64,000 nt of DNA. Origin: an uncultured Planctomycetota bacterium. Its GTDB lineage: Bacteria; Planctomycetota; Planctomycetia; Isosphaerales; Isosphaeraceae. A program made the position numbers and the translations under genes. Of this stretch, positions 28,069 through 46,130 are shown piece by piece. Under the pieces are notes generated by a model that saw only the letters and a list, made by a program, of their open reading frames with translations, ran no database searches and had not been told where the DNA came from. The stretch spans positions 192,001-256,000 of the forward strand of contig CAWJTV010000015.1 in assembly GCA_963845755.1 (NCBI GenBank). The letters are read 5' to 3'. Position 1 is the first letter of the stretch. Every line of letters begins with the position of its first letter.

Positions 28069-29212
28069 GTGAGACCGATTTACCTCGACTACAACGCGAC
28101 AACCCCGCTCGACCCGCGAGTCTTCGAGGCCATGCGGCCCTACTATCTGGCGGAGTTCGGCAATGCCGGGAGCCGGACCCACCTCTACGGCAACCAGGCC
28201 AGGGACGCGGTGGAACTTGCCCGAGCCGCGATTGCCGCACTCCTCGGCCGAAGGCCGGAAGAGGTCGTGTTTACGAGTGGCGCGACCGAGAGCAATAACC
28301 TCGTCTTGCTCGGCCTGATGGCCCATGGTCTGGGTTCCGGTCGAACCCACGTACTGGCTTCCAGCATCGAGCACAAGTCCGTCCTGGCGCCCCTGGAAAA
28401 GCTCCGGTCGGCCGGTTTCGAGGTCGAGTTGTTGCCGGTGACGGACGGAGGCTATGTCGATTCGGAAGAGGTCCGTCGTCGGTTGCGCGAATACGCTCCT
28501 TGTCTCGCTTATGCACGCCAACAATGAGACGGGCGTTCTCCAGCCCGTGCGCGAGGTCGCCGGTCTCATGGCTGACTCCCGTACGCTCTTTCACGTCGAC
28601 GCCGCGCAGACGTTCGGCAAGCAGGTGGACGAATTACGCCAGCTCGACTGCGATTTCCTCGCGATCAGCGGCCACAAAATCTATGGACCGGCCGGCATCG
28701 GGGCGCTTTGCATCCGACGTTCCCGACTCCACCGGACGGCGCTCGAACCGATTATGAGAGGCGGCGGTCAGGAAAGAGGACTCCGGCCCGGCACGCTCCC
28801 CGTTCCCTTGATTGTGGGACTCGGCGCCGCGGCCGAACTGGCGGGGCGGGAGCACGGGGCACGAACCGCCCACGCCGCGGGATTGAAGCGGGAGCTTCTG
28901 ATCGCCCTGGATGCCGTCCCCCATCGAATCAATGGGGATCTTGCCAGGATGCAACCTCATGTCCTCAACGTCAGCTTTCCGGGCGTGCAAAGCGAGGCGC
29001 TCATGCTGGCCTTGCGGTACGAGATGGCAATCTCCAACGGCTCCGCCTGTACGTCGTCCAGCTATTCGACGAGCCATGTCTTGCGAGCCATGGGCCTGTC
29101 GGAGAGCCGGATCGAAACGGCGGTCCGGTTTTCCTGGGGGCCGGGCGTGGACTCGATCCCAGTCATGGCCCTGATCGAAGCGGTCAGGAAGCTGACGTGC
29201 TCGAGCTCTTAA
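28069..29212 (+). CDS. dndA: Cysteine desulfurase DndA (IscS-like; frameshift near 28490)
   Basis: IYLDYNATTP, FTSGATESNN, HVDAAQ, PLP lysine in SGHKIYGP, catalytic Cys in SNGSACTS; GGAGG RBS before the GTG; divergent from dndBCDE. Confidence 0.88.
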
Positions 29213-29320
29213 CGTTTGAGTCGCGCACGAGCAGCACCAAGCCGACGCGCATCCTGAAGTGATACGAGAGGGGGAGGGTGACGGAGTGTGATTGGCCCCG
29301 AAGTCGCAGATGTCCTCCGA

Positions 29321-29508
29321 CGGCCTGAAGGGCCGCAGGAACCCAGCCCGGGGAGAATCCCGGGAATGGGTCGCACCGCAAGTCCTCCGTGCACCCGGAA
29401 GGGGTGCCGGAGCCGGTTCCTGCGGCCTTTCAGGCCGCCGGAGGTCTGGGGTATGCCGCGGACCCCGGGTTTTCACCCGGGGCTGGGCTTCTGCGGCCCT
29501 TCAGGCCG
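29321..29508. repeat. REP-like palindromic cluster
   Basis: cggcctgaagggccgcaggaacccagcccggg followed by two inverted copies ending ...ctgcggcc(c/t)ttcaggccg. Confidence 0.75.
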
Positions 29509-29633
29509 CCGGTGATAGGCTATCCTTAGTGATTGCAACCCATCCGTTAAGTGCTCTAGACTTTGCTCGACCGCCTTGGGGATGACGGGCAATTGCTGGG
29601 ACGCGATCGGAACGAATCTCGGAAACATTGACC

Positions 29634-30740
29634 ATGGCCGGCTTCGAGCTTCACCTACCGGCGATCCGCGGCAAGCAAGCGGGACGCGAGTTCTTCCTCA
29701 TCATGTGTCCCCTCGCGGTCCTCCCGCGCCTTTTTCGCTCGGAAGATGAGGATGTCCAGCCCGAACTCCAGGCCCAGCGGGTCCTGATCCGGAGCCGGGT
29801 CCCGGAGATCGCCCGCTACATCACGGATAATCCCGACTCTTACGTCCTGTCCTCGATCGTCGGCTCGGTCGACCGCGAGGTTCGCTTTGAGCCGGTCCCT
29901 GGCCAGGCCGGGGCGTCAGGGATGGGCACCCTGACGCTGCCGATCGCCGCCCGTTTCCTGATCCACGACGGCCTCCACCGCCGCGCCGCCATCGAAGCCG
30001 CCCTTCGTCTCAAGCCCGAACTCGGTGAAGAGACCGTCTCGCTCGTCCTGTATGTCGACCCGGGCTTCCAGCGATCGGAGCAAATCTTCTCGGACCTGAA
30101 ACGCCACGAATCGCGCTCGTCGCGCTCGCAGGGAATCCTCTGCGATAACCGCGACGAAATGGCCCTCATCACCAAGGAGCTGATCAAGAGGGTGGATGTC
30201 TTCGAAGGCATGACCGAGATGGTCCGGAGCAAGATCTCGAACCGCTCGCTCAAACTGTTCACGCTGAGCGGGATTTACCACGCGACGGAGACGCTCCTCT
30301 CCCAGAAGCCGAAGGCCCCGTTCGCCGAGAAGCTTGCCCTGGCGACGCAGTTCTGGACCGAGGTGGCGAACCAGATCCCGGACTGGAGCCGCGCCAAGCG
30401 TCGAGAGATCAGTCCGGCCGACTTGCGGGCATGGTGTGTCCACTCACACGCGATCGCGTTGGCGGCCTTGGCACGGGCGGGGCGATCTCTGCTGGAGATC
30501 GACCGAGACAAATGGCGAAAGCGTCTGGCACCGCTCCGGAAACTCAACTGGCTCCGGTCGAACCGGCAGCTCTGGGAGGGTCGAGCCATGATCGCAGGCC
30601 GCCTGTCCAAGTCGAATATGAATGTGTTGCTCACGGGCAACGTCATCAAACGGCAGTTGAGGCTGCCGCTGACGCGTGAAGAGCAGGGGGCCGAAGAACG
30701 TCTGACGACACCGACGTTGGATAAGAGCCCGAAGCGCTAG
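29634..30740 (+). CDS. dndB: Second DndB paralog
   Basis: Collinear with the first DndB (PAIRGKQAGR, ISNRSLKLFTLSGIY, LWEGRAMIAGRLSK), but the signature reads DGLHR. Confidence 0.85.
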   Translation: MAGFELHLPAIRGKQAGREFFLIMCPLAVLPRLFRSEDEDVQPELQAQRVLIRSRVPEIARYITDNPDSYVLSSIVGSVDREVRFEPVPGQAGASGMGTLTLPIAARFLIHDGLHRRAAIEAALRLKPELGEETVSLVLYVDPGFQRSEQIFSDLKRHESRSSRSQGILCDNRDEMALITKELIKRVDVFEGMTEMVRSKISNRSLKLFTLSGIYHATETLLSQKPKAPFAEKLALATQFWTEVANQIPDWSRAKRREISPADLRAWCVHSHAIALAALARAGRSLLEIDRDKWRKRLAPLRKLNWLRSNRQLWEGRAMIAGRLSKSNMNVLLTGNVIKRQLRLPLTREEQGAEERLTTPTLDKSPKR

Positions 30741-30824: not shown

Positions 30825-31735
30825 CTAGCCGGATCCCAGGAACTTCTGCCTCCGATGCCAGTCGAGATACGCTGGGTCGGGGTAGAGCGACGAATCGTTG
30901 GGCAACCGGATCTTCTGCCCATGATACTCGGCGAGCGGCTTCTGGTCGGGGCTGTCTTCGGCGAAACAGTCGCGAGCGACGATGACCGTGAAGTCGTCCG
31001 CGATCGTCCAGAGCCCGTTATCGAACATCCAGTGGGCGTTTCGGCAAAGAGCGATGCCGTTCCGGACGTCGTTATTCCGCGAATCCGAGAACTGGTGGAT
31101 ATGGGCCGCGTCGATGAGCGTGCTCGACGAGACGGTCATGATCCGGTAGCCGGTCAGGGCACACGCATAGTTGTACGTCGGGACAACCTGGAGCCGGAAT
31201 CGGGCTTCCCGGCCCTTCTGCGTCGCATCCTCCGGCGCATGGTGCTGGGAGGCACTGACAACCTGGTCCTCGTTCGGAACCGGGATGCCCAGGAGAGCGC
31301 AAAGACCCGGCCACTCGTCGTTCGGGAAATACTTGCAGATCAGAACCCGGGCGCCTCGTCCCGAAAAGCCGCGTCCTTCAGGCATGCCTCGAAGTCGGGA
31401 TTGAGTTCGGCAAACCTTGCCAGGCGACGATCGGGCGCGGGCTTGCCGTTCTCGCCTACGGCCTTCCAGCAGCCGTCGCTCTGCAAGTGGTAGAACGGGA
31501 AGCGCACGTCGGGAGCCTGCGTCCGGCGTTCCGCGACGACGTACCAGTACGAACAAAACTGGAAGGCCAACTCGGGCGTCAGAGGCATGACCTTCTCGGG
31601 TAAGCGAGCTTGTTCGGCGAGCTCCATGATCGCGAGGAGAAGCAGCGGCTTGTGCGGTGCTGGGTTGCCCTTGGCCCAGTCAACTCGCAGTTTCCCGAGC
31701 TTTGACAGCCATCGCTCTCGCGTTATCGCATCCAT
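30825..31735 (-). CDS. SBD-HNH endonuclease (sulfur-binding domain plus HNH; candidate PT-dependent restriction enzyme); frameshift near 31350
   Basis: N-terminal APHKPLLLL and FPFYHLQSDGCW (SBD-like); C-terminal FRLQV...YNYACALTG...DAAHI...NGIALCRNAHWMFDNG. Confidence 0.8.
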
Positions 31736-31832: not shown

Positions 31833-34394
31833 TTACGTCACAGTTATCTCGTCAGGCGCGGCTTCATAGCCCTCTTTCTCCCTGGCCTGCCGGATCCGCT
31901 CGATCAGCGCCGGCAGGTGCGGCCCAAGCCACTCTTTATTGTTCCCAGGAAACAGCCTGATTCGCCAATGACGAAACCTCTCGCCTCGCCCACCAATCTT
32001 CACTGCGTCCACCGCCGCACAGCGGAAGAATAGGTTGATTGTTCGCCGCAGAAACATTTCCCACCACTCGGGTTCCTTGGCGTGAATGCGCGTCGGAGTC
32101 TTCATAATCGGTAATCGCGTCGGCGCGGAGGTCAAGATCGTTTGATTGTTGCGAAAGCTGATGTTCTGAATTCCTTTTCCCTCCGGGCCGTTGCAGGTTT
32201 TGCACAGCGTTTGCAAATTGTCGAAGTGGTTGTTGCCCCCGTGGTAGCTAGGCGAAATATGATCCACTTGAAGCTGTGTCCTTTGCTTGCCGTAGCCACA
32301 GCACAAGCAATGGAACCCGTCCCGCGACTTGACCCGTTCCTTCAACTCGTCGGATGGCTCGACGATCGGTATCGCCTCGGGTGTCTTGAATTGGGGACGA
32401 TGTTTTCCGGGATCGGTGCCATGTCGTTTGGCGTGGAGGATTCGATTAACACAAGCATCGTAATGCGATTTGAAGAGGTCGTAGTTGTAGTAAATCACGC
32501 GCCAATATCGATCTCTATCATGATACTCTGCATCTAAGGCCGCATCCTCATCAACGCGGCTCAGACGATCCGCGAGGAGCCGATGTGCAACCGCATCGAG
32601 ATCGTGATGGTCTCTGACGTCGAACGGGAAGAACTTTGGGACCTGCTTTTCATTTTGGGCAACGTGTCTTGCAATGCCGAACAGGTCCTCAACCAGTCCT
32701 CCTCCGACGCGCACATCGACCCCAGAAAAGAACTTTTCGTGCCAGTGGTTGACTCGCTCTCTGACATCTGCAATCCGAACGGAATCCTCCTCAAACGAGC
32801 CCAAGTCTTCGTTCTTGAGTGAATTGATGAAGGACTCGAACGCTGGCTTCTCATCCTCGAACACCATGACCAGTTGGCCGACTGGCTCAACATCATCGGT
32901 TCCCTCTACGTGCGCGTAGAATTCGACGCGATACCAGCCAATCGGGAGAAAGGCTTTATAGGGAGCAGGATTCACGTTGATCCCCGAATCCATCTGTCTG
33001 GCGAGGCGTCGAACAAGGTCGATCGAAATCATCTGGAGCGGCGGCCTCTTGCCGTACTCGGGGATTGTCTCATCGGCCAACCCGGGAGCGAGCTGGTCGT
33101 ACGCCGCCCAGTTGATGCGGTGTTTCCAGTTGTCAATGAACGAGACAATGAACGCCTTGTCGGTCCCGCCGAACTTTGGTCCTCGGAGGGGGTGCCCAAC
33201 CATCTGGGTCAAGAGAATCTGGCTTGTTGTCTGCCGCGTGAGGAAGACCGTCTGCACATCGGGAACGTCGGTTCCTTCGGTGGCCATCCGGATGTTGATC
33301 AGGACGTCGAGTTTTCCGTCACGGAAGGCTTGAAGCACTTTCGCATTCTCGGCTGATGTGCGCCGGTTTCTGGCTTCTGTGCTGCCTGGATTTGCGTCAA
33401 CGTGGGAATAGATGGCATCAGCCTTCACGTCTCGTTTCTTGAGCGCTTTGCTCAGTTGTTCGCATTGCTCCCAGCGGTCCGCAAAAATGATCGTTTTTCC
33501 GTATCTCTGGCGCTGGCTGACGTAGCAGCCAGCAATATACTCGTTCCGTTCCCGGCTGCTTGCGAGCGAAGTGATGATCGTGTCGGGCAGATCCCGGTTT
33601 GTTCCCACCCAATTCTCGTATTCTCGCTCGTCGAAGTTCGCGTCGAAGGCGGTCGGAGCTTCCTCAGGCACGGGCCTGGCGAGGATGCCAGCGGCCATCA
33701 ATTTTTGCGGAGCAACTTGATAGATAATGCCTTGCGGAAAGAGCTTGTGCAGCCAACCGCGTCTATTTTCCTCGCTGTAGGTGGGCGTAGCCGTGAATCC
33801 CATCAAGTGCATCTGCGGGCAACGCTCACGGAGGCCCAGGATCAGGCTTCTGTAGCTCGGAGCCGGCGAATGGTGGGCTTCATCGAAAACGACGAACAAC
33901 CGACCCTTCGTAGAGTCCAGGAACCGATCTAATTGCCGGTGGCGATGGCTGACCGCGTTGCAAACAGTTTGCAGCGAGCTAATCACGACGTCGTCACTCG
34001 CTTGAATGGAATGGACAGGGAAGTGGCCGATCGTGCCTGAGACGACGCGACTACACAGCCGAGACTTCGGTTCTGCAATCAGGCCGACAACGTCGGAGAA
34101 GCTGGAATGGGCTTGCTCCAGCAGATGGTGGGTATGGGCCAACCACAGGACCTTGAAACCGTCGGATAGCGGGTTCCGGCAGATGAAATGACAGGCCGTG
34201 AATGTCTTGCCGGCTCCAGTCGGGAGAACGAGAATTCCCCCGCGAGGTTCCGGCGGAGCGGATTTGTACCACTTGTCGAGTTTCTGGAGTGCCTCCGCCT
34301 GATGCGGCGCAGGACTCTTGGCGACTCCATGCCGGCGAGCTTCGGAGAGGTCATATTCGCGGTAGGAGTCACTTGTTTGGTTCGGCGTGGCCAT
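31833..34394 (-). CDS. SF2 (ResIII-like) DEAH helicase fused to a C-terminal HNH nuclease
   Basis: LPTGAGKT, FDEAHH, TATP, EGTDVP; HNH CLCCG..QVDHI..GGNN..NLQTLCKTCN; visibly more AT-rich than its flanks. Confidence 0.88.
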   Translation of the reverse strand: MATPNQTSDSYREYDLSEARRHGVAKSPAPHQAEALQKLDKWYKSAPPEPRGGILVLPTGAGKTFTACHFICRNPLSDGFKVLWLAHTHHLLEQAHSSFSDVVGLIAEPKSRLCSRVVSGTIGHFPVHSIQASDDVVISSLQTVCNAVSHRHRQLDRFLDSTKGRLFVVFDEAHHSPAPSYRSLILGLRERCPQMHLMGFTATPTYSEENRRGWLHKLFPQGIIYQVAPQKLMAAGILARPVPEEAPTAFDANFDEREYENWVGTNRDLPDTIITSLASSRERNEYIAGCYVSQRQRYGKTIIFADRWEQCEQLSKALKKRDVKADAIYSHVDANPGSTEARNRRTSAENAKVLQAFRDGKLDVLINIRMATEGTDVPDVQTVFLTRQTTSQILLTQMVGHPLRGPKFGGTDKAFIVSFIDNWKHRINWAAYDQLAPGLADETIPEYGKRPPLQMISIDLVRRLARQMDSGINVNPAPYKAFLPIGWYRVEFYAHVEGTDDVEPVGQLVMVFEDEKPAFESFINSLKNEDLGSFEEDSVRIADVRERVNHWHEKFFSGVDVRVGGGLVEDLFGIARHVAQNEKQVPKFFPFDVRDHHDLDAVAHRLLADRLSRVDEDAALDAEYHDRDRYWRVIYYNYDLFKSHYDACVNRILHAKRHGTDPGKHRPQFKTPEAIPIVEPSDELKERVKSRDGFHCLCCGYGKQRTQLQVDHISPSYHGGNNHFDNLQTLCKTCNGPEGKGIQNISFRNNQTILTSAPTRLPIMKTPTRIHAKEPEWWEMFLRRTINLFFRCAAVDAVKIGGRGERFRHWRIRLFPGNNKEWLGPHLPALIERIRQAREKEGYEAAPDEITVT

Positions 34395-34448
34395 TCGAGC
34401 AGACCTTAGCTACATGGGGGCGATGACACTGTGGCTGATCGCCCGAGT

Positions 34449-34778
34449 TCAGTGGACCGGGCCCTCCTGCTCGATCGTCGGCGTCCCTTTCAACGATTTC
34501 CGCTCTGGCAGGGCTGTTTGCTCCGTCTCGCTGGCACTCTTCCAGGACTGATAGAACTCCTCAACCTTGCCGATCTTCTCGGGGTGGATGAGTTGCAAGA
34601 CGACCGCATTTGATTCTTGAAGGTCCCGTTCAGAGCCTTCAGGCCACATGCCGCCGCCGTTGCCAACCCGATCACACGCAAGGTCGTGCTTATTCAGGTA
34701 TCTACGAAACTTCCCTTCCTCTGTTCGAGGAACTTCGAATAACCCCGTCTGTTCGTTAATGATTCTTAGCTCTCCCAT
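34449..34778 (-). CDS. Hypothetical protein upstream of the helicase
   Basis: Open frame from MGELRIINEQ; AT-richer composition, co-oriented with the helicase. Confidence 0.45.
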   Translation of the reverse strand: MGELRIINEQTGLFEVPRTEEGKFRRYLNKHDLACDRVGNGGGMWPEGSERDLQESNAVVLQLIHPEKIGKVEEFYQSWKSASETEQTALPERKSLKGTPTIEQEGPVH

Positions 34779-35150
34779 GTCATGTCCCTTCACCACTATG
34801 TTGTGAGCAGATTCACCACACCCGGTCTGAGCGGGCCAGCGCATTCCAAAATAACCTCCAAACGGAAAGTTTAACGCCAAGATTGGCCGGAAGTCCATTA
34901 CATGCAGGGATTTCTCGCACCCAGCCATCCGAACGGCAACATGCAATTCCCACTGGTGGGTCGAAGTCAGCCTGACCTGAGTCTCACCGACTCGCTGGTT
35001 TGTGGGAGGTGCAATTCAGTTTCTGGACGGAGAACTCTAGCAAGTCGTGAGAACAATGGCTTTATTGCCTGCTGTCGTGGCCAGCTTCAAGAGGCAATTA
35101 ACGACATGCATCATTTACCCCGGTTCGACACCGTCGGATCCGCTGGACAA

Positions 35151-35861
35151 GACGCCGACGAGTGGGACGCGATCCGCGGCCCGCCACCGAGGACTTGCTG
35201 GTCTACCTGGCCCTCGATCGGTTCCGGCGACGTCCGCCGATGTCCGCCCTGCCGATCGGCCTCCAGCGGGACATCCGGGCGTTCTTCGGCAGCTATGCCA
35301 GCGCCTGCCGCCTGGCGGACGACCGACTTTTCCAGGCCGGTGACGCCGAGGCCGTCGACGACGCCTGCCGACGCTCGGACGTCGGCAAGCTGCTTCCCAA
35401 CGCCCTGTATCTCCACCGCACGCCCTGGAATCGCTCGACCCGCGACTCCGCGTCTACGAGGGCTGCGCCCGGGCCTACCTCGGCGAGGTCGAGGGCGCGA
35501 ACCTGATCAAGCTGCACCGCCAATCGGGCAAGGTGTCGTACCTCGTCTACCCCGACTTCGAGACCGACCCCCACCCGGCGCTGTTGCGAAGCATCAAGCT
35601 GAACCTCCGCACCCGCGAGATCGAGAGCACCGATTACGCCCAGAGCGCCAACCCGCCGGTCCTCCACCGCAAGGAGACGTTCCTGCTTCCCGATCACCCG
35701 TTACGGGCGAAGTTCGAGCGGCTCAGCGCCAGGAGGAGTGCGCCGGCCTGCTGGACGAGACCGCGACGATCGGCACGCGCGAGGGGTGGGCGGAGCGGCT
35801 CCGCGCGACGGGCTACGCACTACGAGGTCATCGGCTGGTCCGGAATCGTACAGGGGATTGA
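35151..35861 (+). pseudogene. 3' fragment of the DNA phosphorothioation-associated putative methyltransferase, copy 1
   Basis: EDLLVYLAL, GKLLPNALY, KVSYLVYPDFETDPHPAL, NPPVLHRKETF and LLDETATIGTR..W; ends RNRTGD*. Confidence 0.8.
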
Positions 35862-35959
35862 ATCGCGGTGTCAGGCGATCTACTGCCGGGACGGGTTGAG
35901 CGCGGACCACGTCGGTTTGAACTGGCACAAGGGTTACCTTCACCAGTTACATCGTCGGA

Positions 35960-36395
35960 TCAGAATTCCAGCCGGAAGGAGCCCTTGGGGCCTTCGAAGG
36001 TGAAAACGCAATGTCGAAGGACGTCTCTGCCGATCAGAGCCTGGAATCCCTGAGTCGAGAGATCCGATTCGATGACCGGAATCGTCACCATCAGGGGATG
36101 GGTCTGAGTCTCACCCAGCACAATACAAGCGTCATACTGATTGCATGCCTGAAAGGCCGGTCCCGTGGAAGGAGTGTGGATGTAGGTGATCCCTCGGAAA
36201 TCGAGACCAAGGCTCGCAATCAGTCCGCGATCCAGCGCGGCAGCTGGCGCCGGTGTCGAGCAAACCGAGGCCCACACACGGAGACGAGAAGGGAATCCCC
36301 GCTTTCTTCAGCGCCTCGACCCGCTGACGACTCTGCATGGCTTTGAAGGGGACTAGCGGCCCCAAGGCACTGATCCGGTCGGACAGGACGGACAT
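35960..36395 (-). CDS. Retropepsin-like aspartyl protease (frameshift near 36240)
   Basis: LLDTGAS catalytic motif and C-terminal LIGRDVL. Confidence 0.75.
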
Positions 36396-36619
36396 CAAGC
36401 AAGGTCCCGTGAGAAATACTGGATCGGTTCCACTCGACTGATTTGTTTGACCAAGAAAGCAACCACGCCAAACTTCTCGTATCCGGCCTGAAGCGCATCT
36501 TCGTACGAGTCGAAGGGGCCTTCGATCGCCTCGCCGTGCACGACGACGTACTTCCCCTCGTTGGCGAGCAGGTCCATCAGGTGCTCGTTGTATACGGCCA
36601 GCTCCCGCTCCAAGGCCAT
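36395..36619 (-). CDS. Small DUF5678-like protein coupled to the protease gene
   Basis: LL..EGKYVVVHG.....FDSYEDALQAGYEKFG; its stop overlaps the protease start. Confidence 0.7.
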   Translation of the reverse strand: MALERELAVYNEHLMDLLANEGKYVVVHGEAIEGPFDSYEDALQAGYEKFGVVAFLVKQISRVEPIQYFSRDLA

Positions 36620-36901
36620 CGTTATCACCTCGATCGATTGAACCTCGATGGCTAGAACGCCCTACAATCACTGAATATCGGCCCAGAAGCCGGTATTCTT
36701 TGGGCAGAATGTGCAATTCCCACAGCGTCCCCGCTTCGCAAGCTGGCTTACACGCCGAAACATTGCCGACAACTATCGCCCGGACCAACTCAATGATTCT
36801 CTGATCGTTAGTACACAATCTCGGACGGTATCAAGAGCCAGCTTCGGGAATCGGGCATTAATCCAGCTCGGCCATTCGACACGGCACCGCCAAGCTCTGG
36901 A

Positions 36902-37731
36902 CCCGGTTCGGCTCGCTCCCGCGGGCGTTCGCCCTGGTCAAACGCGTCACCGGCTCCTAGTTGGACGTGATCTCCCGGCGCAGCACCGAGGGCTTTCTCG
37001 TGTACCTGGCCCTCGGCCGGTTCTGGCGCCGGCCGACGATGTCCGCACTGCCGATCGGGCTCCAGCGGGGCATCCGGGCGTTCCCTCGCGGGAGACCCTC
37101 GGTCCGGCTCGCGACGGGGTCGGGAGACCCTCGCCGAACAGCTTCTGGCCGACGACCGGCTGTTCCAGGCCGGCGACGCCGAGGCCGTCGATGACGCCTG
37201 CCGACGCTCGGACGTCGGCAAGCTGTTGCCCAACGCCCTGTATCTCCACCGCAGCGCCCTGGAATCGCTCGACCCGCTGCTCCGCGTCTACGAGGGCTGC
37301 GCCGGTCTTACCTCGGCGAGGTCGAAGGCGCCAACCTGATCAAGCTGCACCGCCATTCGGGCAAGGTCTCGTACCTGGTCTACCCCGACTTCGAGACCGA
37401 CCCCCACCCGGCCCTGTTGCGCAGCATCAAGCTCGACCTCCGCACCCGCGAGATTGAGAGCACCGATTACGCTCGACAGCGCGAATCCGCCGGTCCTCCA
37501 CCGCAAGGAGACGTTCCTGCTGCCCGATCATCCTCTGCGCCGAAGTTCGAGCGGCTGACGCGCCAGGAGGAGCGCGCCGGCCTGCTGGACGAAACGGCCA
37601 CGATCGGCACACGGGACGGTTGGGAGGCACGATTGCAAGAGAGGGGGTTCACGATTCGCGGGCATCGCTTGATACGACGGGTTTCACGACCGCCCGATGA
37701 CGAGTCAGATCAGAGTGATGTAGACTGCTGA
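36902..37731 (+). pseudogene. 3' fragment of the Dnd-associated methyltransferase, copy 2
   Basis: Same conserved block; in-frame TAG at 36958-36960, a ~55-bp foreign segment at ~37083-37140; ends RRVSRPPDDESDQSDVDC*. Confidence 0.8.
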
Positions 37732-37749
37732 ACCATCGTCGTCAACCAC

Positions 37750-38178
37750 TTACCTCGTCCAGTCTTCGGTGACGAGGTTGGGGACTCTGGCGAAGTCCCC
37801 CGTATTACGAGTCAGCAACACCAAGGCGCGCGATAGCGCGATCGAGGCGATCCGCAGGTCCATCGTGTCAACGCGCAATCGGCGGCCGTCCAGCCCATCG
37901 AAGACCGCCGCGGCGGCTACATCGAACGGCACGACGGGAGCCGCCGCGAATTGCCTTAGGTTCCTGGCGAGCATGCTATATCCCCGCACGATGTCCTCGG
38001 CCTTCCGCGCCCGATTGATGTAAGTATGGGCCCCCAGGGCCTGCTCGTGGAAGCTCACGATGGAGAACCCCAGGTCGGACCGAGATGCTTGACGAATGCG
38101 GGCTGACAGCGTGGCATACTCCTGGCCGGATTGCCGCTGAAGGATGCTGATGTGATCGGTGTCCAGCAAGTACTTCAC
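37750..38178 (-). CDS. vapC: VapC (PIN domain) toxin
   Basis: KYLLDTDHIS, SIVSFHEQ, MDLRIASIAL and LLTRNTGDF. Confidence 0.85.
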   Translation of the reverse strand: MKYLLDTDHISILQRQSGQEYATLSARIRQASRSDLGFSIVSFHEQALGAHTYINRARKAEDIVRGYSMLARNLRQFAAAPVVPFDVAAAAVFDGLDGRRLRVDTMDLRIASIALSRALVLLTRNTGDFARVPNLVTEDWTR

Positions 38179-38388
38179 GGCACGATGTCCTCGACGGATC
38201 GCTCTCCCTTTCGAAATCGCCCGGCCGTAGGCAATCACCTCGTCAAAAGCTGGCTCATCTTTGAACGAACCGATGACCTGTTCCAGCCAATCCGGAGCCG
38301 GCGGCTGGATCAAAAGGTGCTCTCGAAGTTCGGCAACCGCAGCCTCCACGGCCGCGAGACGCTCTTCAACCGTTGTGTCCACAGGCAT
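38175..38388 (-). CDS. Putative antitoxin upstream of vapC (frameshift near 38215)
   Basis: TVEERLAAVEAAVAEL...W...GSFKDEPAFDEVIAYGRA; the duplicate at 43973..44185 is intact and overlaps vapC by GTGA. Confidence 0.7.
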
Positions 38389-38632
38389 GAGAGCTCACCC
38401 CCTAAGAGCCTCAGGTGATCCCGCTATTGTTCCATTCTCCCATCGGCTGAGGCCGCTTCAGCTCGGTCGAGCTTCACGGGATAGGGCAGAAACCCTCCTC
38501 CTAAGATAACTCGGTCTCCCAAATCTAGCGAGCCCACCGACTCGATCAAGCCCCGTTGAGATCTCGAACGAGTCTCAGGGATGCCGGACGGCATTGATCG
38601 CGGGGCGAGAGCTGTTTCGGGTTGCCAAGGGA

Positions 38633-39456
38633 GCGGTTGCCGGATGCCGACGAATGCATGCCGGCCGCCGCGATCGTGGCCCGGTTCGGCTCGCTCAAGC
38701 GGGCCTTCGCCCTGGTCAAGCGGGTGACCGGCCCCGATGAGTGGGACGCGATCGCCCGGCGCAGCACCGAGGACCTACTCGTGTACCTGGCCCTCGGGCG
38801 GTTCCGGCGCCGGCCGCCGATGTCCGCCCTGCCGATCGGCCTCCAGCGGGACATCCGGGCGTTCTTCGGCAGTTACTCCAACGCTTGCCGCCTGGCCGAC
38901 GAGCGGCTGTTCCCGGCCGGCGACGCCGAGGCCGTCGATGACGCCTGCCGACGCTCGGACGTCGGCAAGCTCTTGCCCAACGCCCTGTATCTCCACCGCA
39001 GCGCCCTGGAATCGCTCGACCCGCTCCTCCGCGTCTCCGAGGGCTGCGCCCGGGCCTACCTCGGCGAGGTCGAAGGCGCCAACCTGATCAAGCTGCACCG
39101 CCAATCGGGCAAGGTCTCGTACCTCGTCTACCCCGACTTCGAGACCGATCCCCACCCGGCCCTGTTGCGGAGCATCAAGCTCAACCTCCGCACCCGCGAG
39201 ATCGAGAGCACCGATTACTCCCAGAGCGCGAATCCGCCAGTCCTCCACCGCAAGGAGACGTTCCTGCTTCCCGATCACCCGTTACGGGCGAAGTTCGAGC
39301 GGCTGACGCGCGCAGGAGGAGCGCGCCGGCCTGCTGGACGAGACCGCGACGATCGGCACGCGGGAGGGCTGGCAGAGGCGACTGCAGGAGAGCGGGTTCA
39401 CGGTTCTCGGACATTGCTTGATACGACGGATCGCACAGAAGCCCAAGGACGAGTAG
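38633..39456 (+). pseudogene. 3' fragment of the Dnd-associated methyltransferase, copy 3
   Basis: RLPDADEC..RFGSLKRAFALVKRVTG through HRKETF; ends RRIAQKPKDE*. Confidence 0.8.
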
Positions 39457-39545
39457 GATTGAAGGTATTCCCTGGCAGCGTGGCTTGATGGAGATTCTTA
39501 TTGGCGGTTCAAGTCGAGCAGCCAGCGCGAAGAGGAGGGATGGTC

Positions 39546-39779
39546 ATGTCGAGCGTGACGTTGGAAGAGGCGCAAAGTCACCTGGCCCAGTTGATCGAGC
39601 AGCTCCAGCCCGGTGAAGAGATCGTGATCACTCGCGACCGTAAGCCGGTTGCCCGCCTGATCGCCGAGTCGGAACCCCGGCGGCAACCGCGGCGTCTGGG
39701 AACCATGAAAGGGACGGTCCTTCACATCGCGCCCGACTTCGATGCGCCTCTCGAGGACTTCAAGGAGTACATGGAGTGA
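39546..39779 (+). CDS. Phd/YefM-family antitoxin with a DUF2281-like tail
   Basis: VTLEEAQSHLAQLIE...GEEIVITRDRKPVARL and PDFDAPLEDFKEYM; GGAGG RBS. Confidence 0.85.
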   Translation: MSSVTLEEAQSHLAQLIEQLQPGEEIVITRDRKPVARLIAESEPRRQPRRLGTMKGTVLHIAPDFDAPLEDFKEYME

Positions 39780-40163
39780 GGCTCATTCTCGATTCCCATG
39801 TCCTCCTCTGGGCGGTCGATGATCCAGTCCGACTCAGTCCAACCGCCGCCGCCCTCTTGCAAGACCCGGCCAACGAGTTACTCGTCAGCGCAGCCACCAT
39901 CTGGGAGATGTCCATCAAGGTCGGACTGGGAAAGCTGACCCTTTCCCAACCGTACCGCGACGTGGATGACCCAGGCCCTTGCTGATCTCGGGGCTACGAT
40001 CCTGCCGATTACCGTGGAGTATTCCGACGCTCAGGCTGCATTGCCCTTTCATCATCGCGACCCCTTCGATCGGTTGATTATCGCTCAAACTCTTGTCGAA
40101 GGAATCTCGGTCGTCAGTGACGACGGCCAGTTCGACGCTTATGGCGTCAGCCGCCTCTGGTGA
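39776..40163 (+). CDS. vapC: VapC (PIN domain) toxin, second subfamily (frameshift near 39962)
   Basis: LILDSHVLLW, SAATIWEMSIK and HHRDPFDRLIIAQ; GTGA overlap with the antitoxin. Confidence 0.85.
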
Positions 40164-40180
40164 GGCAGAAGTTCCGCTTG

Positions 40181-40990
40181 GCGGCCCTCGGCCGGTTGCC
40201 GAAGGCCGACGAATGCCCGCAGGCGACGAAGTCGCGGCCCGGTTCGGCTCGCTCCCGCGGGCGTTCGCCCTGGTCAAGCGGGTCACCGGCGCCGACGAGT
40301 GGGATACGATCGCCCGCCGCAGCACCGAGGACCTGCTCGGGTACCTGGCCCTGGGCCGGTTCCGGCGACGGCCGCAGATGTCGGCCCTGCCGATCGGGCT
40401 CCAGCGGGACATCCGGGCGTTCTTCGGCAGCTATGCCAAGGCCTGCCGCCAGGCCGACGACCGGCTGTTCCAGGCCGGCAGTGCCGAGGCCGTCGATGAC
40501 GCCTGCCGACGCTCGGCCGTCGGCAAGCTCCTGCCCAACGCCCTGTACGTCCACCGCAGCTCCCTGGAATCGCTCGACCCGCTGCTCCGCGTCTATGAGG
40601 GCTGCGCCGGGCCTATCTCGGCGAGGTCGAGGGCGCGAACCTGATCAAGCTGCACCGCCAGTCGGGCAAGGTCTCGTACCTCGTCTACCCCGACTTCGAG
40701 ACCGATCCTCACCCGGGCCTGTTGCGGGGCATCAAGCTCAACCTCCGCACCCGCGAGATCGAGAGCACCGATTACGCCCAGCAGCGCGAATCCGCCGGTC
40801 CTCCACCGCAAGGAGACGTTCCTGCTCCCCGAGCACCCCTTGCGCGCGAAGTTCGAGCGGCTGACGCGCCAGGAGGAGCGCGCCGGGTTGCTGGACGAGA
40901 CCGCGACGATCGGCACACGGGAAGGGTGGGCGGAACGGCTGCGAACGATGGGCTACGCTCTCCGTGGCCATCGGCTGATTCGGAGCAAGT
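40181..40990 (+). pseudogene. 3' fragment of the Dnd-associated methyltransferase, copy 4
   Basis: Starts ~20 bp after the vapC stop (AALGRLPKADEC); homology ends at ALRGHRLIRSK. Confidence 0.8.
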
Positions 40991-41081
40991 CGAGGGATTG
41001 CCCCCCCGAGTCTCGAGTGAGTACCGCCGCGGACGATGACGCGGCACAGTCCGGAAGTGCTGAGTCGGCTGGCTACAGCGC

Positions 41082-41297
41082 CTATCTTTTGGATTGCGCA
41101 CGCTCCATGCCAGCGCGACGCCGTCGGCCGGCGCCCGCGTCGGAACATGCCCCGAAGGCGGCGCCCAGGAGCCCGATGATCATCAGCATGGACAGGCCGA
41201 TGCCCTTGACGTCGTTTTCCTTCAAGGCCGCGATACCGACGCTGAAAGCTGCGACGATGAAGAGAAAGCTGCCGATGGTTGACCTAGGTGGATGCAT
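41082..41297 (-). CDS. Small two-TM membrane protein
   Basis: Two hydrophobic segments; planctomycete-like PRSTIGSFLFIVAA leader. Confidence 0.4.
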   Translation of the reverse strand: MHPPRSTIGSFLFIVAAFSVGIAALKENDVKGIGLSMLMIIGLLGAAFGACSDAGAGRRRRAGMERAQSKR

Positions 41298-41478
41298 CGT
41301 GATTTTCCCATGAGCGACCCCTGCATCCTAATCTCCTCAGCGAAGGCGGTAAACGACCTGGCTGGGGGAGGAGCCTCCGTCCCGCGACCACACCGGCCGA
41401 AGATCGGCGGCCCGAGCCGGCTCCTGCAGGGGTTCGTCGGGGGCCTTTCGTCATTGCGAAACCCACAGGTTAGGCGCT

Positions 41479-42103
41479 CTAACCGCCCGCATCGACAAAC
41501 GGCCCGAACCAATCGAGCCGGTAAGTGAGGTCTAAGAGGAGTTCGTCGTAAGTCACGCAGAAGATCCGCTTGGAATTGACGATGACGTGCTCGCGTCGCC
41601 AACGCAGGCGGTCATCCTCACCGGTATTCATGTGCTGGTCACGGCCGATCACCAGGACCCCCGTATAATCGATCGCCGCGCCTCCCGCATCGGGCCTCCA
41701 TCGTGGCCGTACCAGTCATGTCCTGGAGCTTGTAGAACCAGTCGACGACCTGGGAGAATCCGTGCTCGAAGCGCGGGCTCCACTCCCGGGTGGACTTGTC
41801 GCCGTGCTTGACGAACAAGCTGCGTGGTCCCGCATCCTCAAACTCGACGAAGGTGCAAGCGCGCGTCACCGAGTCGGCGATCGCCAGGTCGCGACGAAAC
41901 TCCCCGAAGAGGGGGTACTCGTAGGCCATGAGGTCGAGCCGTTTCACTGCAGGTGTGTGGGGCCCGATCAGGGCTGTCGCATGTGGCCGCGACCGGAAGA
42001 AGTCACGGAAGGCGGCTTCCTTCAAGTGGGCATGCGATTCCAGAAGCACCCGGAACTCCTCAACCTCGGCGTGGGCAGCGCGGGGATCGAGCACGTGAGG
42101 CAC
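41479..42103 (-). CDS. DUF4263 (Shedu SduA-type nuclease domain) protein (frameshift near 41680)
   Basis: EYPLFGEFRRDLAIAD, FVEFED and FEHGFSQVVDW; the shifted frame continues GVLVIGRD...CVTYDELL to a stop at 41479. Confidence 0.72.
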
Positions 42104-42132
42104 GAAGTCGGGCTTGGGACGACGCCCTCCCC

Positions 42133-42423
42133 TTACTTGGCCCCAGCGATCGTTTGCAGCGTCTCATGGTGGACGATGTCGGCAACCTCCAGGGGCCGGC
42201 CGGGGCGCAAGGAGATCAGGATCCTCCAGCCCCCATCGATCGGTATCACGTAGAACGTCTCCGACACGCCCGGCCTCCTGGCCACGCGCGCGGGCCACTC
42301 GCTCGGAGGGAGCTTGGCGAGGGTCTCCAGCTTCGCTCGGATCGCCGCCTGGTCGGCCTCCGGCAATTGATAGAATGCGTTGAATGCGCGATAATGCAGC
42401 CCGAATCCAGCGATTTCCATCAT
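42133..42423 (-). CDS. RelE/ParE-like small protein
   Basis: ~95 aa with the pattern A..AF.QL...DQ..I...L..L ... FYVI....WRILI ... V.DIVHHE; GGAGG RBS. Confidence 0.5.
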   Translation of the reverse strand: MMEIAGFGLHYRAFNAFYQLPEADQAAIRAKLETLAKLPPSEWPARVARRPGVSETFYVIPIDGGWRILISLRPGRPLEVADIVHHETLQTIAGAK

Positions 42424-42536
42424 CGGCCTCCTCAGCCTCGACCCCGCACCGTTTCTTCTCGGGGCGGACGTCTGCCCACCGGACTCCATTCTACGTCAGG
42501 ATTCCCACCCCGCTCAAGGTCGGGTGTCGTTCGGCG

Positions 42537-43529
42537 CTGCTCGACGAAGCGGCGACGATCGGTACGCGGCCAGCCGGCAGCGGCGGAAGGCCGCGGCGCC
42601 GCGCAAGCGGATCTCGGAAGTCCGGTTCGAGGAGAACCGGGAGCTGCTCGAACCGTTCCTGGCGACGATCGCCGCCTTCGGGCGGTTGCCGGAGGCCGAC
42701 GAATGCGCGCAGGCCGCCGAGGTCGTGGCCCGATTCGGCTCGCTCAAACGGGCCTTCGCCCTCGTCAAGCGGGTCACCGGCGCCGACGAGTGGGACGCGA
42801 TCGCCCGGCGCAGGCACCGAGGACTTGCTCGTCTACCTGGCCCTGGGCCGGTTCCGGCGCCGGCCGCCGATGTCCGTCCTGCCGATCGGCCTCCCGCGGG
42901 ACATCCGGGCGTTCTTCAGCAGCTATGCCAATGCCTGCCGCCTGGCCGACGAGCGGCTGTTCCAGGCCGGCGACGCCGCGGCCGTCGACGACGCCTGCCG
43001 ACGCTCGGACGTCGGCAAGCTCCTGCCCAACGCCCGGTATCTCCACCGCAGCGCCCTGGAATCGCTCCACCCGCTACTCCGCGTCTCCGAGGGCTGCGCC
43101 CGGGCCTATCTCGGCGAGGTCGAGGGTGCGAACCTGATCAAGCTGCACCGCCAATCGGGCAAGGTGTCGTACCTCGTCTACCCCGACTTCGAGACCGATC
43201 CCCACCCGGCCCTGTTGCGGAGCATCAAGCTGAACCTGCGCACCCGCGAGATTGAGAGCAGCGATTACGCCCAGAGCGCGAACCCGCCGGTCCTCCACCG
43301 CAAGGAGACGTTCCTGCTGCCCGATCATCCTCTGCGCCCGAAGTTCGAGCGGCTGACGCGCCAGGAGGAGCGAGCCGGCCTGCTGGACGAAACGGCCACG
43401 ATCGGCACGCGGGACGGTTGGGAGGCACGCTTGCAAGAGAGGGGGTTCACGATTCGCGGGCATCGCTTGATACGACGGGTTTCACGACCGCCCGATGACG
43501 AGTCAGATCAGAGTGATGTAGACTGCTGA
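42537..43529 (+). pseudogene. Longest fragment of the Dnd-associated methyltransferase, copy 5
   Basis: LLDEAATIGTR joined to SRQRRKAAAPRKRISEVRFEENRELLEPF...; ends RRVSRPPDDESDQSDVDC* like copy 2. Confidence 0.82.
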
Positions 43530-43547
43530 ACCATCGTCGTTAACCAC

Positions 43548-43976
43548 TTACCTCGTCCAGTCTTCGGTGACGAGGTTTGGGACTCTGGCGAAGTCCCCCG
43601 TATTACGAGTCAGCAACACCAAGGCGCGCGATAGCGCGATCGAGGCGATCCGCAGGTCCATCGTGTCACCGCGAATCGGCGGCCGTCCAGCCCATCGAAG
43701 ACCGCCGCGGCGGCTACATCGAACGGCACGACGGGAGCCGCCGCGAATTGCCTTAGGATCCTGGCGAGCATGCTATATCCCCGCACGATGTCCTCGGCCT
43801 TCCGGGCCCGATTGATGTAAGTATGGGCCCCCAGGGCCTGCTCGTGGAAGCTCACGATGGAGAACCCCAGGTCGGACCGAGATTCTTGACGAATGCGGGC
43901 TGACAGCGTGGCATACTCCTCGGCCGGATTGCCGCTGAAGGATGCTGATGTGATCGGTGTCCAGCAAGTACTTCAC
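43548..43976 (-). CDS. vapC: VapC toxin, duplicate of 37750..38178 (frameshifted)
   Basis: Near-identical DNA to the first copy. Confidence 0.8.
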
Positions 43977-44185
43977 GGCACGATGTCCTCGACGGATCGC
44001 TCTCCCTCTCGAATCGCCCGGCCGTATGCAATCACCTCGTCAAAAGCTGGCTCATCTTTGAACGAACCGATGACCTGTTCCAGCCAATCCGGAGCCGGCG
44101 GCTGGATCAAAAGGTGCTCTCGAAGTTCGGCAACCGCAGCCTCCACGGCCGCGAGACGCTCTTCAACCGTTGTGTCCACAGGCAT
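43973..44185 (-). CDS. Putative antitoxin, duplicate of 38175..38388
   Basis: 70-aa ORF MPVDTTVEERL...EDIVP* overlapping the vapC start. Confidence 0.75.
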   Translation of the reverse strand: MPVDTTVEERLAAVEAAVAELREHLLIQPPAPDWLEQVIGSFKDEPAFDEVIAYGRAIREGERSVEDIVP

Positions 44186-44437
44186 GAGAGCTGCGACCCC
44201 CTCGTGCCTCCTCAGGTGATCCCGCTTTTGTTCCATACTCCCATCGGCTGAGAGCCGCATTCAGCTCGGTCGAGTTTCACGGGATAGGGCGGAAACCCTC
44301 CTCCTAAGATAACTCGGTCTCCCAAATCTAGCGAGCCCACCGACTCGATCAAGCCCCGTTGAGATCTCGAACGAGTCTCGAGAGGATGCCGGACGGCATT
44401 GATCGCGGGGCGAGAGCTGTTTCGGGTTGCCAAGGGA

Positions 44438-44760
44438 GCGGTTGCCGGATGCCGTCGAATGCGCCGCCGGTCGCCGCGATCGTGGCCCGGTTCGGCTCGC
44501 TCAAGCGGGCCTTCGCCCTGGTTAAGCGGGTGACCGGCGCCGAGGACTGGGACGCGATCAGCCGGCGCAGCACCGAGGACCTGCTCGTCTACCTGGCCCT
44601 GGGCCGGTTCCGGCGACGGCCGCCGATGTCCGCTTCGCCGATCGGACTCCAGCGGGACATCCGGGCGTTCTTCGGCAGTTATGCCAACGCCTGCCGCCTT
44701 GCCGACGACCGGTTGTTCCCGGCTGGCGACGCCGTGGCTGTCGATGACGCCCCGCCGCCG
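44438..44760 (+). pseudogene. Truncated fragment of the Dnd-associated methyltransferase, copy 6
   Basis: RFGSLKRAFALVKRVTG...LFPAGDAVAVDDA, then homology stops. Confidence 0.78.
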
Positions 44761-44885
44761 CTCGGCCGTGGATAAGCTGTCCGAATTGGGTGACGAGCGG
44801 GAAGGGTCATTGACCCTGGTCGATAATGGCTTGAGAGATCGAGATCGTTGATTTGGCAGGTCCAGGTGGATGGAGATCGAGGTTG

Positions 44886-46130
44886 ATGGCGACGAATGAG
44901 AGCATGAAGACGATGGTCACGCCGCAGGCGACCGAACAGGGGACTGTGGTCGCCGTTCTGCTGGCGCTCAGTGTATCCCATTTGCTCAATGATACGATGC
45001 AATCGCTCCTCCCGGCGGTGTATCCGATCATGAAGGCACGGTATGCCCTCAGTTTTACCCAGGTCGGACTGATCACCTTCGTCTTCCAGGTGACCGCCTC
45101 GCTCCTTCAGCCGGTCGTGGGCTTTTCCACCGACCGCCGGCCACGGCCGTACTCGCTCGCCTGCGGGATGGTTTTCACGCTCGTCGGTTTGATCCTCCTG
45201 TCGGTCGCAGGCAGTTTCTCCGCAATCCTGCTCGCTGCCGGACTGGTGGGAGTCGGTTCGTCGGTGTTCCATCCGGAGGCATCGCGGGTCGCTCGGCTGG
45301 CGTCGGGCGGCCGGCACGGGTTTGCCCAATCGTTGTTCCAGGTCGGAGGGAATGCCGGGTCGGCGATCGGACCGCTCCTGGCCGCATTCGTCGTCGTCCC
45401 GTGGGGCCAGTCGAGCATCGCCTGGTGCTCGGTCGCTGCCCTGATCGCGATGACCGTGTTATTCGCCGTCGGCCGGTGGTATGAGCAGCATCTCTCGATG
45501 GCGAGGGCGAGGCCGCGCGCGGGGCACGATTCGGGACGGGTCGGACCGTCGCGGACCCGCGTCATGTCGGCGGTCGGCATCCTCCTCCTGCTGGTCTTCT
45601 CGAAGTACTTCTACCTGGTGAGTCTGAGCAGCTATTACACCTTCTACCTGATCGACCGGTTCGGCGTGTCGGTCCCGACGGCCCAGATCCTCCTGTTCGT
45701 TTTCCTCGGTTCGGTGGCGGCAGGAACCCTGGCCGGCGGGCCGGTCGGAGATCGGATTGGCTTCAAGGCGGTGATCTGGGTGTCGATCCTCGGGGTCCTA
45801 CCGTTCACGCTGGTACTGCCTTCCGCCAACCTGTTCTGGACGGGCGTGCTGACCGTCCCGATCGGGGTGATTCTCGCCTCGGCCTTCTCGGCCATCATCG
45901 TCTATGCCCAGGAACTATTGCCCAGCCGCGTCGGGACGGTTGCCGGCCTGTTCTTCGGGTTCGCGTTCGGCATGGGCGGTCTCGGAGCGGCCCTCCTGGG
46001 CCGGCTGGCCGACTACACGAGCATCGCCTTTGTCTATCGCGTCTGCTCGTTCCTGCCCCTGATGGGGCTCTTGACTGGCTTCCTCCCCAATCTGGACAGA
46101 GGACCGTCCCGGTCCGGTGAGTCGAGATAA
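44886..46130 (+). CDS. fsr: MFS transporter, fosmidomycin-resistance (Fsr) type
   Basis: SHLLNDTMQSLLPAVYP, GSSVFHPEASRVAR, AQSLFQVGGNAG and FSKYFYL. Confidence 0.85.
   Translation: MATNESMKTMVTPQATEQGTVVAVLLALSVSHLLNDTMQSLLPAVYPIMKARYALSFTQVGLITFVFQVTASLLQPVVGFSTDRRPRPYSLACGMVFTLVGLILLSVAGSFSAILLAAGLVGVGSSVFHPEASRVARLASGGRHGFAQSLFQVGGNAGSAIGPLLAAFVVVPWGQSSIAWCSVAALIAMTVLFAVGRWYEQHLSMARARPRAGHDSGRVGPSRTRVMSAVGILLLLVFSKYFYLVSLSSYYTFYLIDRFGVSVPTAQILLFVFLGSVAAGTLAGGPVGDRIGFKAVIWVSILGVLPFTLVLPSANLFWTGVLTVPIGVILASAFSAIIVYAQELLPSRVGTVAGLFFGFAFGMGGLGAALLGRLADYTSIAFVYRVCSFLPLMGLLTGFLPNLDRGPSRSGESR

Follow-up and report, generated by a model that had tools for sequence, protein, structure and literature searches.

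Truncated 3' copies of a Dnd-associated methyltransferase gene form a cassette array with toxin-antitoxin and defence genes in a planctomycete

Several known kinds of bacterial array resemble the locus described here, in which 3' copies of a gene for a DNA phosphorothioation (PT; Dnd)-associated putative methyltransferase, family TIGR04096, alternate with toxin-antitoxin (TA) and defence genes at 35.1-44.9 kb of a 64,000-nt stretch of DNA (the window) from an uncultured Planctomycetota bacterium. In the orphan modules of Rhs, CDI and MafB systems, a conserved gene is followed by a co-oriented array of its own 5'-truncated pieces, with small genes of toxin/immunity type after each; these modules move by homologous recombination with the conserved piece, and their variable part is the C-terminal tip of the open reading frame (ORF). 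In silent-cassette gene-conversion systems such as pilE/pilS, msp2 and the hsdS shufflons, truncated promoterless copies recombine with one another. Insertion with long target duplication was reportedly described by Nobusato et al. in 2000. In the sections available from Furuta et al. (2010; PMC2853133), restriction-modification (RM) genes are flanked by long, variable target duplications without mobility genes, the repeats often span the stop codon, the target gene stays whole, and amplification through the repeats is proposed. Sedentary chromosomal integrons carrying TA and defence cassettes are described in the available part of a recent preprint (bioRxiv 10.1101/2024.07.02.601686).

The array shares with insertion with long target duplication, as far as the available sections of PMC2853133 describe it, the placing of selfish defence genes between long direct repeats of the target, without a transposase or integrase. 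The cases in those sections are single RM insertions, with repeats of about 46-47 bp in the table rows, whereas the present arrays have up to seven serial copies of 0.1-1.1 kb, carry mostly TA pairs and small defence systems, and recur across a bacterial family. A preliminary description of this locus had compared it to Rhs/CDI orphan modules, and the layout of co-oriented 5'-truncated pieces with small genes after each is indeed alike; however, no variable toxin tip lies within the truncated ORF. The copies are conserved up to the stop codon, the variable cargo starts past it and lies on either strand, and an intact head gene is mostly lacking. Chromosomal integrons, as the available part of the preprint presents them, are similar in their arrays of one- and two-gene cassettes rich in TA and anti-phage genes and in their cassette-sized spacing (a median of 1227 nt from copy to copy in our arrays), with TA cargo as a plausible stabiliser. 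Unlike integrons, the array has no IntI, attI or attC, holds cargo on both strands and is built on a repeat unit that is a coding piece of 0.3-1 kb. Silent-cassette systems likewise consist of truncated gene copies that recombine, but here the copies have no hypervariable block, the genome has no expression site, and unrelated cargo lies between the copies.

In the literature searched, supplements excepted, we found neither a published description of such arrays at Dnd loci nor any mention of 'TIGR04096'. The earlier statement that nothing of the kind had been described for a Dnd locus agrees with this, but the array has a close precedent in insertion with long target duplication, as represented in the available sections of PMC2853133. 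What is new is the serial insertion at one gene end, with up to seven repeats; the TA and small-defence cargo; the family-wide recurrence; and direct evidence that the repeats serve as homology arms. Defence islands are recognised as hot-spots, but the accumulation of small systems in them without mobility genes is mostly unexplained, and here a single gene end gathers up to seven cassettes in many genomes. With their readable repeats, break-points and shared cargo, these arrays make the mechanistically unsolved insertion with long target duplication testable in culturable planctomycetes, and they provide a catalogue of compact candidate TA and defence modules.

The repeat copies and their cargo

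The window comprises positions 192001-256000 of contig C15 (277 kb) in an assembly of 14.27 Mb and 49 contigs that is 87.9% complete (G000). A repeat search of the window returned direct-repeat families with five to six co-oriented members, and all six repeats of the preliminary description were recovered to within about 40 nt. We placed the copies by tblastn with an intact 474-codon TIGR04096 homologue from genome G009, and scored them with the TIGR04096 hidden Markov model (HMM), which has a curated cut-off of 150 bits. All lie on the forward strand. Copy c1 (35189-35861), which the HMM also matches, covers amino acids (aa) 249-473 by tblastn (to 35855) followed by a stop, and reads in three frames. 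Copy c2 (36880-37731; aa 212-471, to 37689) runs to the stop and is the most decayed: it contains an in-frame TAG and a foreign block of 34 nt, and its frame changes several times; c3 (38634-39456; aa 204-468, to 39429) also runs to the stop and has one frame change near its 3' end. Copy c4 (40189-41000; aa 197-471, to 40995) is without the stop codon present in its homologue in a second array on contig C20, and its frame continues to 41313. The longest copy, c5 (42494-43529), covers HMM positions 151-477 and, by tblastn, aa 163-471 (42560-43487), with a frame change at about 42816. The terminal copy, c6 (44446-44751; aa 204-307), is without its 3' end and stops before an MFS transporter gene, in keeping with the truncation to about 0.3 kb reported for it earlier.

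The proposed identity of the repeat with the 3' region of TIGR04096 was borne out, as the ORFs of c3 and c5 score 263.8 and 249.7 bits; several other pieces fall under the cut-off. Coverage of the profile anywhere in the genome is restricted to positions 151-477, and neither the HMM nor tblastn with the intact homologue found a match to aa 1-162, the N-terminal methyltransferase part, in the assembled genome. The full-length architecture of the family, an N-terminal class I S-adenosylmethionine (SAM) methyltransferase domain followed by the C-terminal region, was thus not found in G000. When c5 was searched against the genome by blastn, it matched the window copies at 87-91% identity, reflecting the many substitutions already noted between them, and three fragments on C20, and nothing else. 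The copies are about 93-97% identical in protein; a start codon is not conserved among those of the window, and their alignment reveals no hypervariable block within them. Just 5' of c5 (about 42470-42505), and likewise before the C20 fragment C20c, approximately 33 nt resemble the far 3' region of the gene; before c5 this stretch reads LLDEAATIGTR (compare aa ~441-451), fused in another frame to aa ~150, and an old deletion may have left it as a microhomology junction.

Every one of the five cargo blocks sits between direct repeats of 306-970 nt that match the target gene, and the cargo genes lie on both strands. Cargo 1 (35960-36628, minus strand) consists of a retropepsin-like ORF (35960-36277) and a DUF5678-like ORF (36395-36628), labels that are language-model leads (0.94 and 0.90) for ORFs with no Pfam or NCBIfam match at E<=0.05; homologous cargo also follows the orthologous copy in a congener (G001). 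Cargo 2 (37750-38388, minus) is an antitoxin and a VapC (PIN) toxin in a single 212-aa ORF (NCBIfam VapC, 3.1e-11; Pfam PIN, 0.0049), and cargo 3 (39501-40163, plus) a Phd/VapB antitoxin (39501-39779) with a VapC PIN protein spread over two frames (39776-39985 and 39966-40163). Cargo 4 (41479-42489, minus) holds a Shedu SduA/DUF4263 nuclease in two pieces (41479-41652 and 41639-42103; PADLOC, 1.2e-43; Pfam SduA_C, 1e-10) and a 118-aa ORF (42133-42489). Cargo 5 (43610-44260, minus), with VapC in pieces and the antitoxin at 43973-44260, is a recent copy of cargo 2, as the earlier reading of a duplicated antitoxin-vapC pair had it. HMM matches thus support the antitoxin/VapC, Phd/VapC and DUF4263 labels of the preliminary description, but not its 'RelE-like' label for the 118-aa ORF or its 'membrane ORF', neither of which has a family match in Pfam, NCBIfam or PADLOC.

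The second, smaller array holds three TIGR04096 fragments (C20a to C20c; G000:C20:106403-109821, positions 8401-11822 of locus L026). It has no Dnd context; glycosyltransferase genes lie on one side and DUF11 surface-protein genes on the other, and a ParE-like ORF is close by. The c4 and c5 junctions of the window have homologues in this array. The repeat therefore occurs at just two loci in 14.27 Mb, with the copies co-oriented within each, and we rejected a dispersed non-autonomous transposon or miniature inverted-repeat element; a check on scattering of this kind had been proposed for the locus, and the array reading came through it. We regard it as nearly certain that the array is real.

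No integrase or attC-like site had been visible at the locus, and wider searches gave the same picture. None of the 43 matches to PF00589 (tyrosine recombinases) and none of the 37 matches to PF00239 (serine recombinases) in the genome is on C15; on C20, the second array has no serine-recombinase match closer than about 100 kb. Seven inverted-repeat pairs were found in 34400-45000, none of them an attC-like structure recurring at cassette borders. Among 145 scanned ORFs of cargo and distal flank there was no tyrosine or serine recombinase, nor was a recombinase found among the ORFs scanned at 25 loci of this and related genomes, and no tyrosine recombinase was among the ORFs scanned in the window. 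The only transposases were IS21, DDE_3 and IS200, at four loci; the 62 tails listed share no motif after the stop codon. The array is thus unlike an integron, with no IntI beside it, no recurring inverted repeats and cassettes that are not co-oriented, and it resembles an insertion with long target duplication in having no mobility gene in or beside the insert.

Arrays in related genomes

We surveyed 121 genomes of the same taxonomic family together with 400 genomes sampled evenly from the rest of the phylum, and found TIGR04096 matches in 27 and eight of them, respectively; the source names of close homologues are Gemmataceae, Planctomycetota and Isosphaeraceae. Array anatomy was compared across 25 loci from 21 genomes, with 83 copies in all. 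Twenty of these loci, in 17 genomes, hold two to seven co-oriented copies, and five consist of a single intact gene (in G009, G436, G458, G465 and G462), all in other genera. The same arrays, in-frame stops included, are present in fragmented assemblies taken as short-read (G438, G460 and G484), and paired 3' fragments of distant homologues occur in two genomes of other families (G059 and G044). In G059 (L047; C3:112693-114609), a 3' fragment of aa 308-467 lies directly 5' of a near-full-length distant homologue in one open frame of 679 codons. Most arrays start right after a divergent restriction endonuclease (REase)-helicase gene, or after an HNH_2 gene and DndB, and the single intact gene of G009 has the same context; the arrays occupy the native position of the gene. 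Homologous loci are mostly arrays with varying neighbours, and not, as the preliminary description had allowed for, always one copy with invariant neighbours.

Of the 83 copies, 77 have a truncated 5' end, and in 61 of the 77 the sequence still extends to the 3' end. The truncated copies start anywhere from aa 61 to aa 440, 30 of the 77 within aa 200-250. Homology stops at the stop codon, and it is exactly there that c4 and its C20 homologue diverge. Only two of 58 non-terminal copies are without their 3' end, one of them split by IS21; the other 56 run exactly to the end of the gene. Terminal copies are without the 3' end in 14 of 20 cases (one cut by a contig end), and the first copy is 5'-truncated in 19 of 20 arrays; in 12 arrays compared by eye, the end of the terminal copy is further along the gene than the start of the first copy. 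A few copies are internally deleted (L038 of G486, L034, L043 and L023), keeping aa ~230-310 and ~435-474 with the middle gone and a recurrent 3' break near aa 435-441; for those of G486, DNA mapping against a distant intact gene is too weak to fix the junctions.

The Pfam scan of cargo covered the 145 ORFs in cargo and in up to 2.5 kb of distal flank past the last copy, and 40 of them had a match at E<=0.001 (105 had none). With Pfam and PADLOC, TA-type cargo across the arrays includes PIN/VapC, Phd, ParE, DUF433 with DUF5615, UPF0175, HEPN and nucleotidyltransferase families; named or candidate defence cargo includes SduA, AAA_21 with DUF4276 (HEC-01), PDC-S02 and PDC-S70; and the other enzymes, mostly nucleases, are dCTP-deaminase-like, AHJR and DUF4058 nucleases and DUF1016/YhcG. 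The same cargo families appear in different genera in different orders, and of 236 cargo-ORF clusters, 41 are represented at more than one place. Units of gene tail plus downstream cargo, as postulated from the window, recur in other genera; the SduA cassette, for example, has the same tight stop-codon junction in the C20 array, G487 and G486. Two modules, PIN+f40 and F5+f31, are inverted relative to the repeats in G443 (L041) compared with G459 (L040) and G487 (L029). Across genera, the same cargo is followed by copies truncated at differing points (aa 163/166, 217, 230 and 314).

Recombination, origin and competing explanations

Each copy in the window is a mosaic whose nearest relative changes repeatedly across successive 60-nt windows; the four-gamete test fails for 377 of 703 informative site pairs, and a PHI-like permutation test is significant (p=0.001). 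In a tract at 37499-38660, cargo 2 is flanked by the end of c2 (~230 nt) and the start of c3 (~25 nt). This tract is ~98% identical to 43296-44465, against 88-94% for the adjoining repeat sequence. The cargo 2 tract has recently been copied as a cassette with both end-points inside repeats. A single Campbell insertion of an excised circle was rejected as the origin of this c2-to-c5 duplication, because c6 should then be c2-like after its first 25 nt and is only 79% identical to c2. Between G000 and the congener G001, synteny at 95.6% identity extends over 3.5 kb, from an IS21 insertion site in the first copy of G001 to 293 nt into c3, and the cargo differs beyond. Inside this tract, c1 and its positional orthologue differ by ~10% in their 3' part, with 8/7/31 differences by codon position, which suggests that one of the two was overwritten by another allele.

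In a tree of 60 copies based on the last 330 nt, copies group by genome or genus, which indicates that they arise or are homogenised within lineages and are not gathered from distant donors. The preliminary description had proposed that the conserved gene end is a landing pad for homologous recombination on which incoming units stack up. Its first part is supported in that the repeats act as homology arms, as the 98% tract and the four-gamete failures show, although the genome has no intact gene to serve as the pad; stacking from distant donors is not supported by the tree. Exchange anchored in the repeats is also insufficient by itself, as it cannot yield the two cargo modules found in both orientations.

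We calculated the ratio of nonsynonymous to synonymous substitution rates (dN/dS) to assess selection on the copies. It is 0.09-0.33 among c1, c3, c4, c5 and C20b, at dS 0.19-0.47, and 0.5-0.9 for c2, c6 and C20c; paired-copy comparisons gave 0.27, 0.14, 0.11, 0.52 and 0.84, a comparison of c4 with C20b being disregarded as it included non-homologous sequence. The low values require either conversion from selected alleles or a function of the fragments themselves. The C-terminal part is matched at E<=1e-10 by no fewer than 1298 database proteins, 123-394 aa long, many of which begin at a conserved internal Met (MATIAALGRLPE). The structural model of intact homologues (pLDDT 82.4) has an N-terminal class I SAM-methyltransferase domain (Foldseek to SAM-dependent methyltransferases, E 4e-5) and a C-terminal region that is helical and alpha/beta. 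For the C-terminal part alone (pLDDT 77.5), Foldseek returned nothing from the PDB at E<=0.001, and a wide VIA search returned only TetR-like three-helix matches to residues 36-96 (Z<=6.9), too weak to name a function. A guess at a PD-(D/E)XK motif around YPDFE had no support, and a sub-threshold Pfam HNH_repeat match to aa 201-240 of one intact homologue (3e-4; 21.5 bits, where the cut-off is 26) was not used.

The explanation that we favour, with a probability of roughly 0.55, is serial insertion with long target duplication at the stop codon of the gene, followed by homologous recombination among the repeats. The native site of the Dnd-linked methyltransferase gene would thereby have turned into a cassette array, and the gene itself would now be dead. 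Selfish TA pairs, or defence systems of one or two genes, would have inserted at or just past the stop codon, each bringing a long direct duplication of the 3' part of the gene; the left copy would stay whole to its stop, a new 5'-truncated copy would follow the cargo, and the process would be repeated serially. Once two or more repeats of 0.3-1 kb were present, homologous recombination and gene conversion between them, with incoming related alleles also taking part, would copy, replace, reorder and delete cassettes and keep the copies mosaic and protein-like, a step that the 98% tract and the mosaic copies show in part. Addictive TA cargo may then guard the array against deletion and unprotected edges erode, so that the first copy would lose its 5' end and the last its 3' end. 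A site-specific recombinase would be unnecessary. The left copy being whole to its stop, the variable start of the new copy, the absence of a mobility gene and the presence of cargo in either orientation argue for insertion with long target duplication; the two modules inverted in G443 point to the cargo as the mobile party, and the clustering of copies by genome or genus to their origin in situ.

Several observations weigh against this account. No pair of very close relatives was found in which one has an insertion where the other has an empty site, and the insertion step is therefore read from anatomy. Duplicates that arise in situ as pseudogenes should approach a dN/dS of 1, and the observed 0.09-0.33 is far from it; conversion from selected alleles would explain the low values, but the genome is without an intact donor. 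Varying truncation after the same cargo is ill-suited to simple circle excision and re-integration, and the choice of this gene end as a target is left unexplained by the findings. Indel errors are also present in the assembly, as shown by a DndA-like gene split over two frames and by rpoB (G000:C34:79366-83015, outside the window), where the match to the model falls in two adjacent frames (positions 4-632 and 634-1237), so that truly broken copies cannot be told from misread ones. Frame changes are denser in the copies than in neighbouring genes, with at least 10 in ~5.4 kb, against none in the 2.5-kb helicase gene next to the array and one in the 3.7 kb of rpoB. Related assemblies with few contigs yet low completeness (one, for example, of a single contig and 58%) look similar to the assembly with the frameshifted rpoB.

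An artefact of a long-read metagenome bin is nonetheless very improbable. Repeats are hard to polish and indel errors do occur, but the copies differ by 9-15% and each is joined to different cargo, the same arrays are found in 17 genomes, among them the fragmented assemblies taken as short-read, and error-free 151-nt pieces from an independent soil run fall on cargo and on one border between cargo and copy; this run (X1; share 0.08) gave 12 short, low-depth pieces of the stretch, which leave the array unspanned and the frameshifts unsettled. The repeats might instead be passive debris, chance 3' duplications in a decaying defence island on which TA and defence genes landed independently and whose repeats move no cargo. 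The clustering of copies by genome, the two modules in both orientations, the many frame changes and in-frame stops, also in short-read assemblies, and near-neutral pairs (dN/dS of 0.84 for the two c1 copies of G487 and of 0.52 for c2 of G012 and G456) would all fit such decay. Chance, however, would not keep giving the same architecture in 20 of 25 loci in 17 genomes and in distant families (G044 and G059), and the 56 of 58 non-terminal copies that run exactly to the gene end, the mosaic copies and the recent cassette copy with both end-points in repeats all speak against it; we consider debris unlikely.

Slightly less likely again is a site-specific recombinase encoded elsewhere and acting in trans, integron-like or IMEX-like, that inserts cassettes in the 3' half of the gene. 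The genome has 43 tyrosine-recombinase matches, 30 of 77 5' borders fall in aa 200-250, and near GGTTGCCGNAGGCCGACGAATGC the c3/c6 and c4/C20a borders are no more than ~20 nt apart; yet the borders as a whole span aa 61-440, no motif is shared after the stop codons of 62 tails and no inverted repeat recurs, none of the ORFs scanned at 25 loci encodes such an enzyme, cargo lies on both strands, and the repeats are 85-91% identical where identical cores would be expected. It is similarly doubtful that the truncated copies are working genes, in which a C-terminal, probably DNA-binding domain is expressed alone as part of each cassette, for instance as a regulator or decoy. Consistent with this are the dN/dS of 0.09-0.33 among five copies, the values for positional orthologues that are fragments in both species (0.27, with 16 differences, 1/4/11 by codon position, and 0.14), the short database proteins starting at an internal Met, the single frame change in each of c3 and c5 in an error-prone assembly, and a helix-turn-helix-like three-helix unit in the model (VIA Z 6.9, rmsd 2.2 A over 59 residues), a weak match to a common arrangement. 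Against these stand variable 5' ends with no conserved start codon in the window, in-frame stops in short-read assemblies, the internally deleted derivatives, the dN/dS of 0.5-0.9 for c2, c6 and C20c, and the nature of the short database proteins, many of which must come from ORFs truncated where a contig ends. Silent-cassette switching of specificity, as in a methyltransferase-hsdS shufflon, was rejected, there being no variable block in the copies and no recombinase on the contig of the array.

Beyond serial insertion followed by recombination, we tentatively consider a wider role, which seems to us clearly less probable than that mechanism itself. The TIGR04096 3' half may be the recombination module of a RecA-dependent, integrase-free cassette platform that captures, banks and reshuffles TA and anti-phage modules; in Gemmataceae-like planctomycetes, such a platform would be the functional counterpart of the chromosomal integron, kept intact by addictive cargo and outliving the methyltransferase from which it began. 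Within this idea, the truncated copies might also still be translated.

The surrounding Dnd locus

The array has the Dnd context expected of TIGR04096, with DndE, DndC, two DndB genes and a DndA-like gene 4-16 kb upstream. On the minus strand lie DndE (19040-19612), DndC (22279-23739) and DndB (23773-24870), followed by three Uma2 ORFs in a row (25106-27869), the split DndA-like desulfurase (27964-29209, plus), a second DndB (29628-30740, plus) and a PT-dependent-endonuclease-like HNH_2 gene (30825-31556, minus). The two DndB paralogues are 50% identical and lie in opposite orientations around the split DndA-like gene; the Dnd locus itself (23773-30740) looks rearranged. The divergent neighbour of the array encodes an 853-aa ResIII helicase with a C-terminal HNH domain (31833-34394, minus), which is PbeA-like or type IV REase-like, and the right border is the MFS transporter gene (44853-46130, plus).

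Between the helicase gene and c1 (34395-35188), GC content is lower, at 54-58%, and a 165-aa minus-strand ORF (34449-34946) has no match in Pfam, NCBIfam or PADLOC. A stand-alone ORF for a LigD 3'-phosphoesterase domain (18563-18967) adjoins dndE, and a LigD_N ORF is found near the intact gene in G458 (L039). At 56825-63158, and unrelated to the array, is a bacterial-microcompartment cluster with a DeoR regulator, PTAC, two BMC shell genes, acetate kinase, aldehyde dehydrogenase and EutN.

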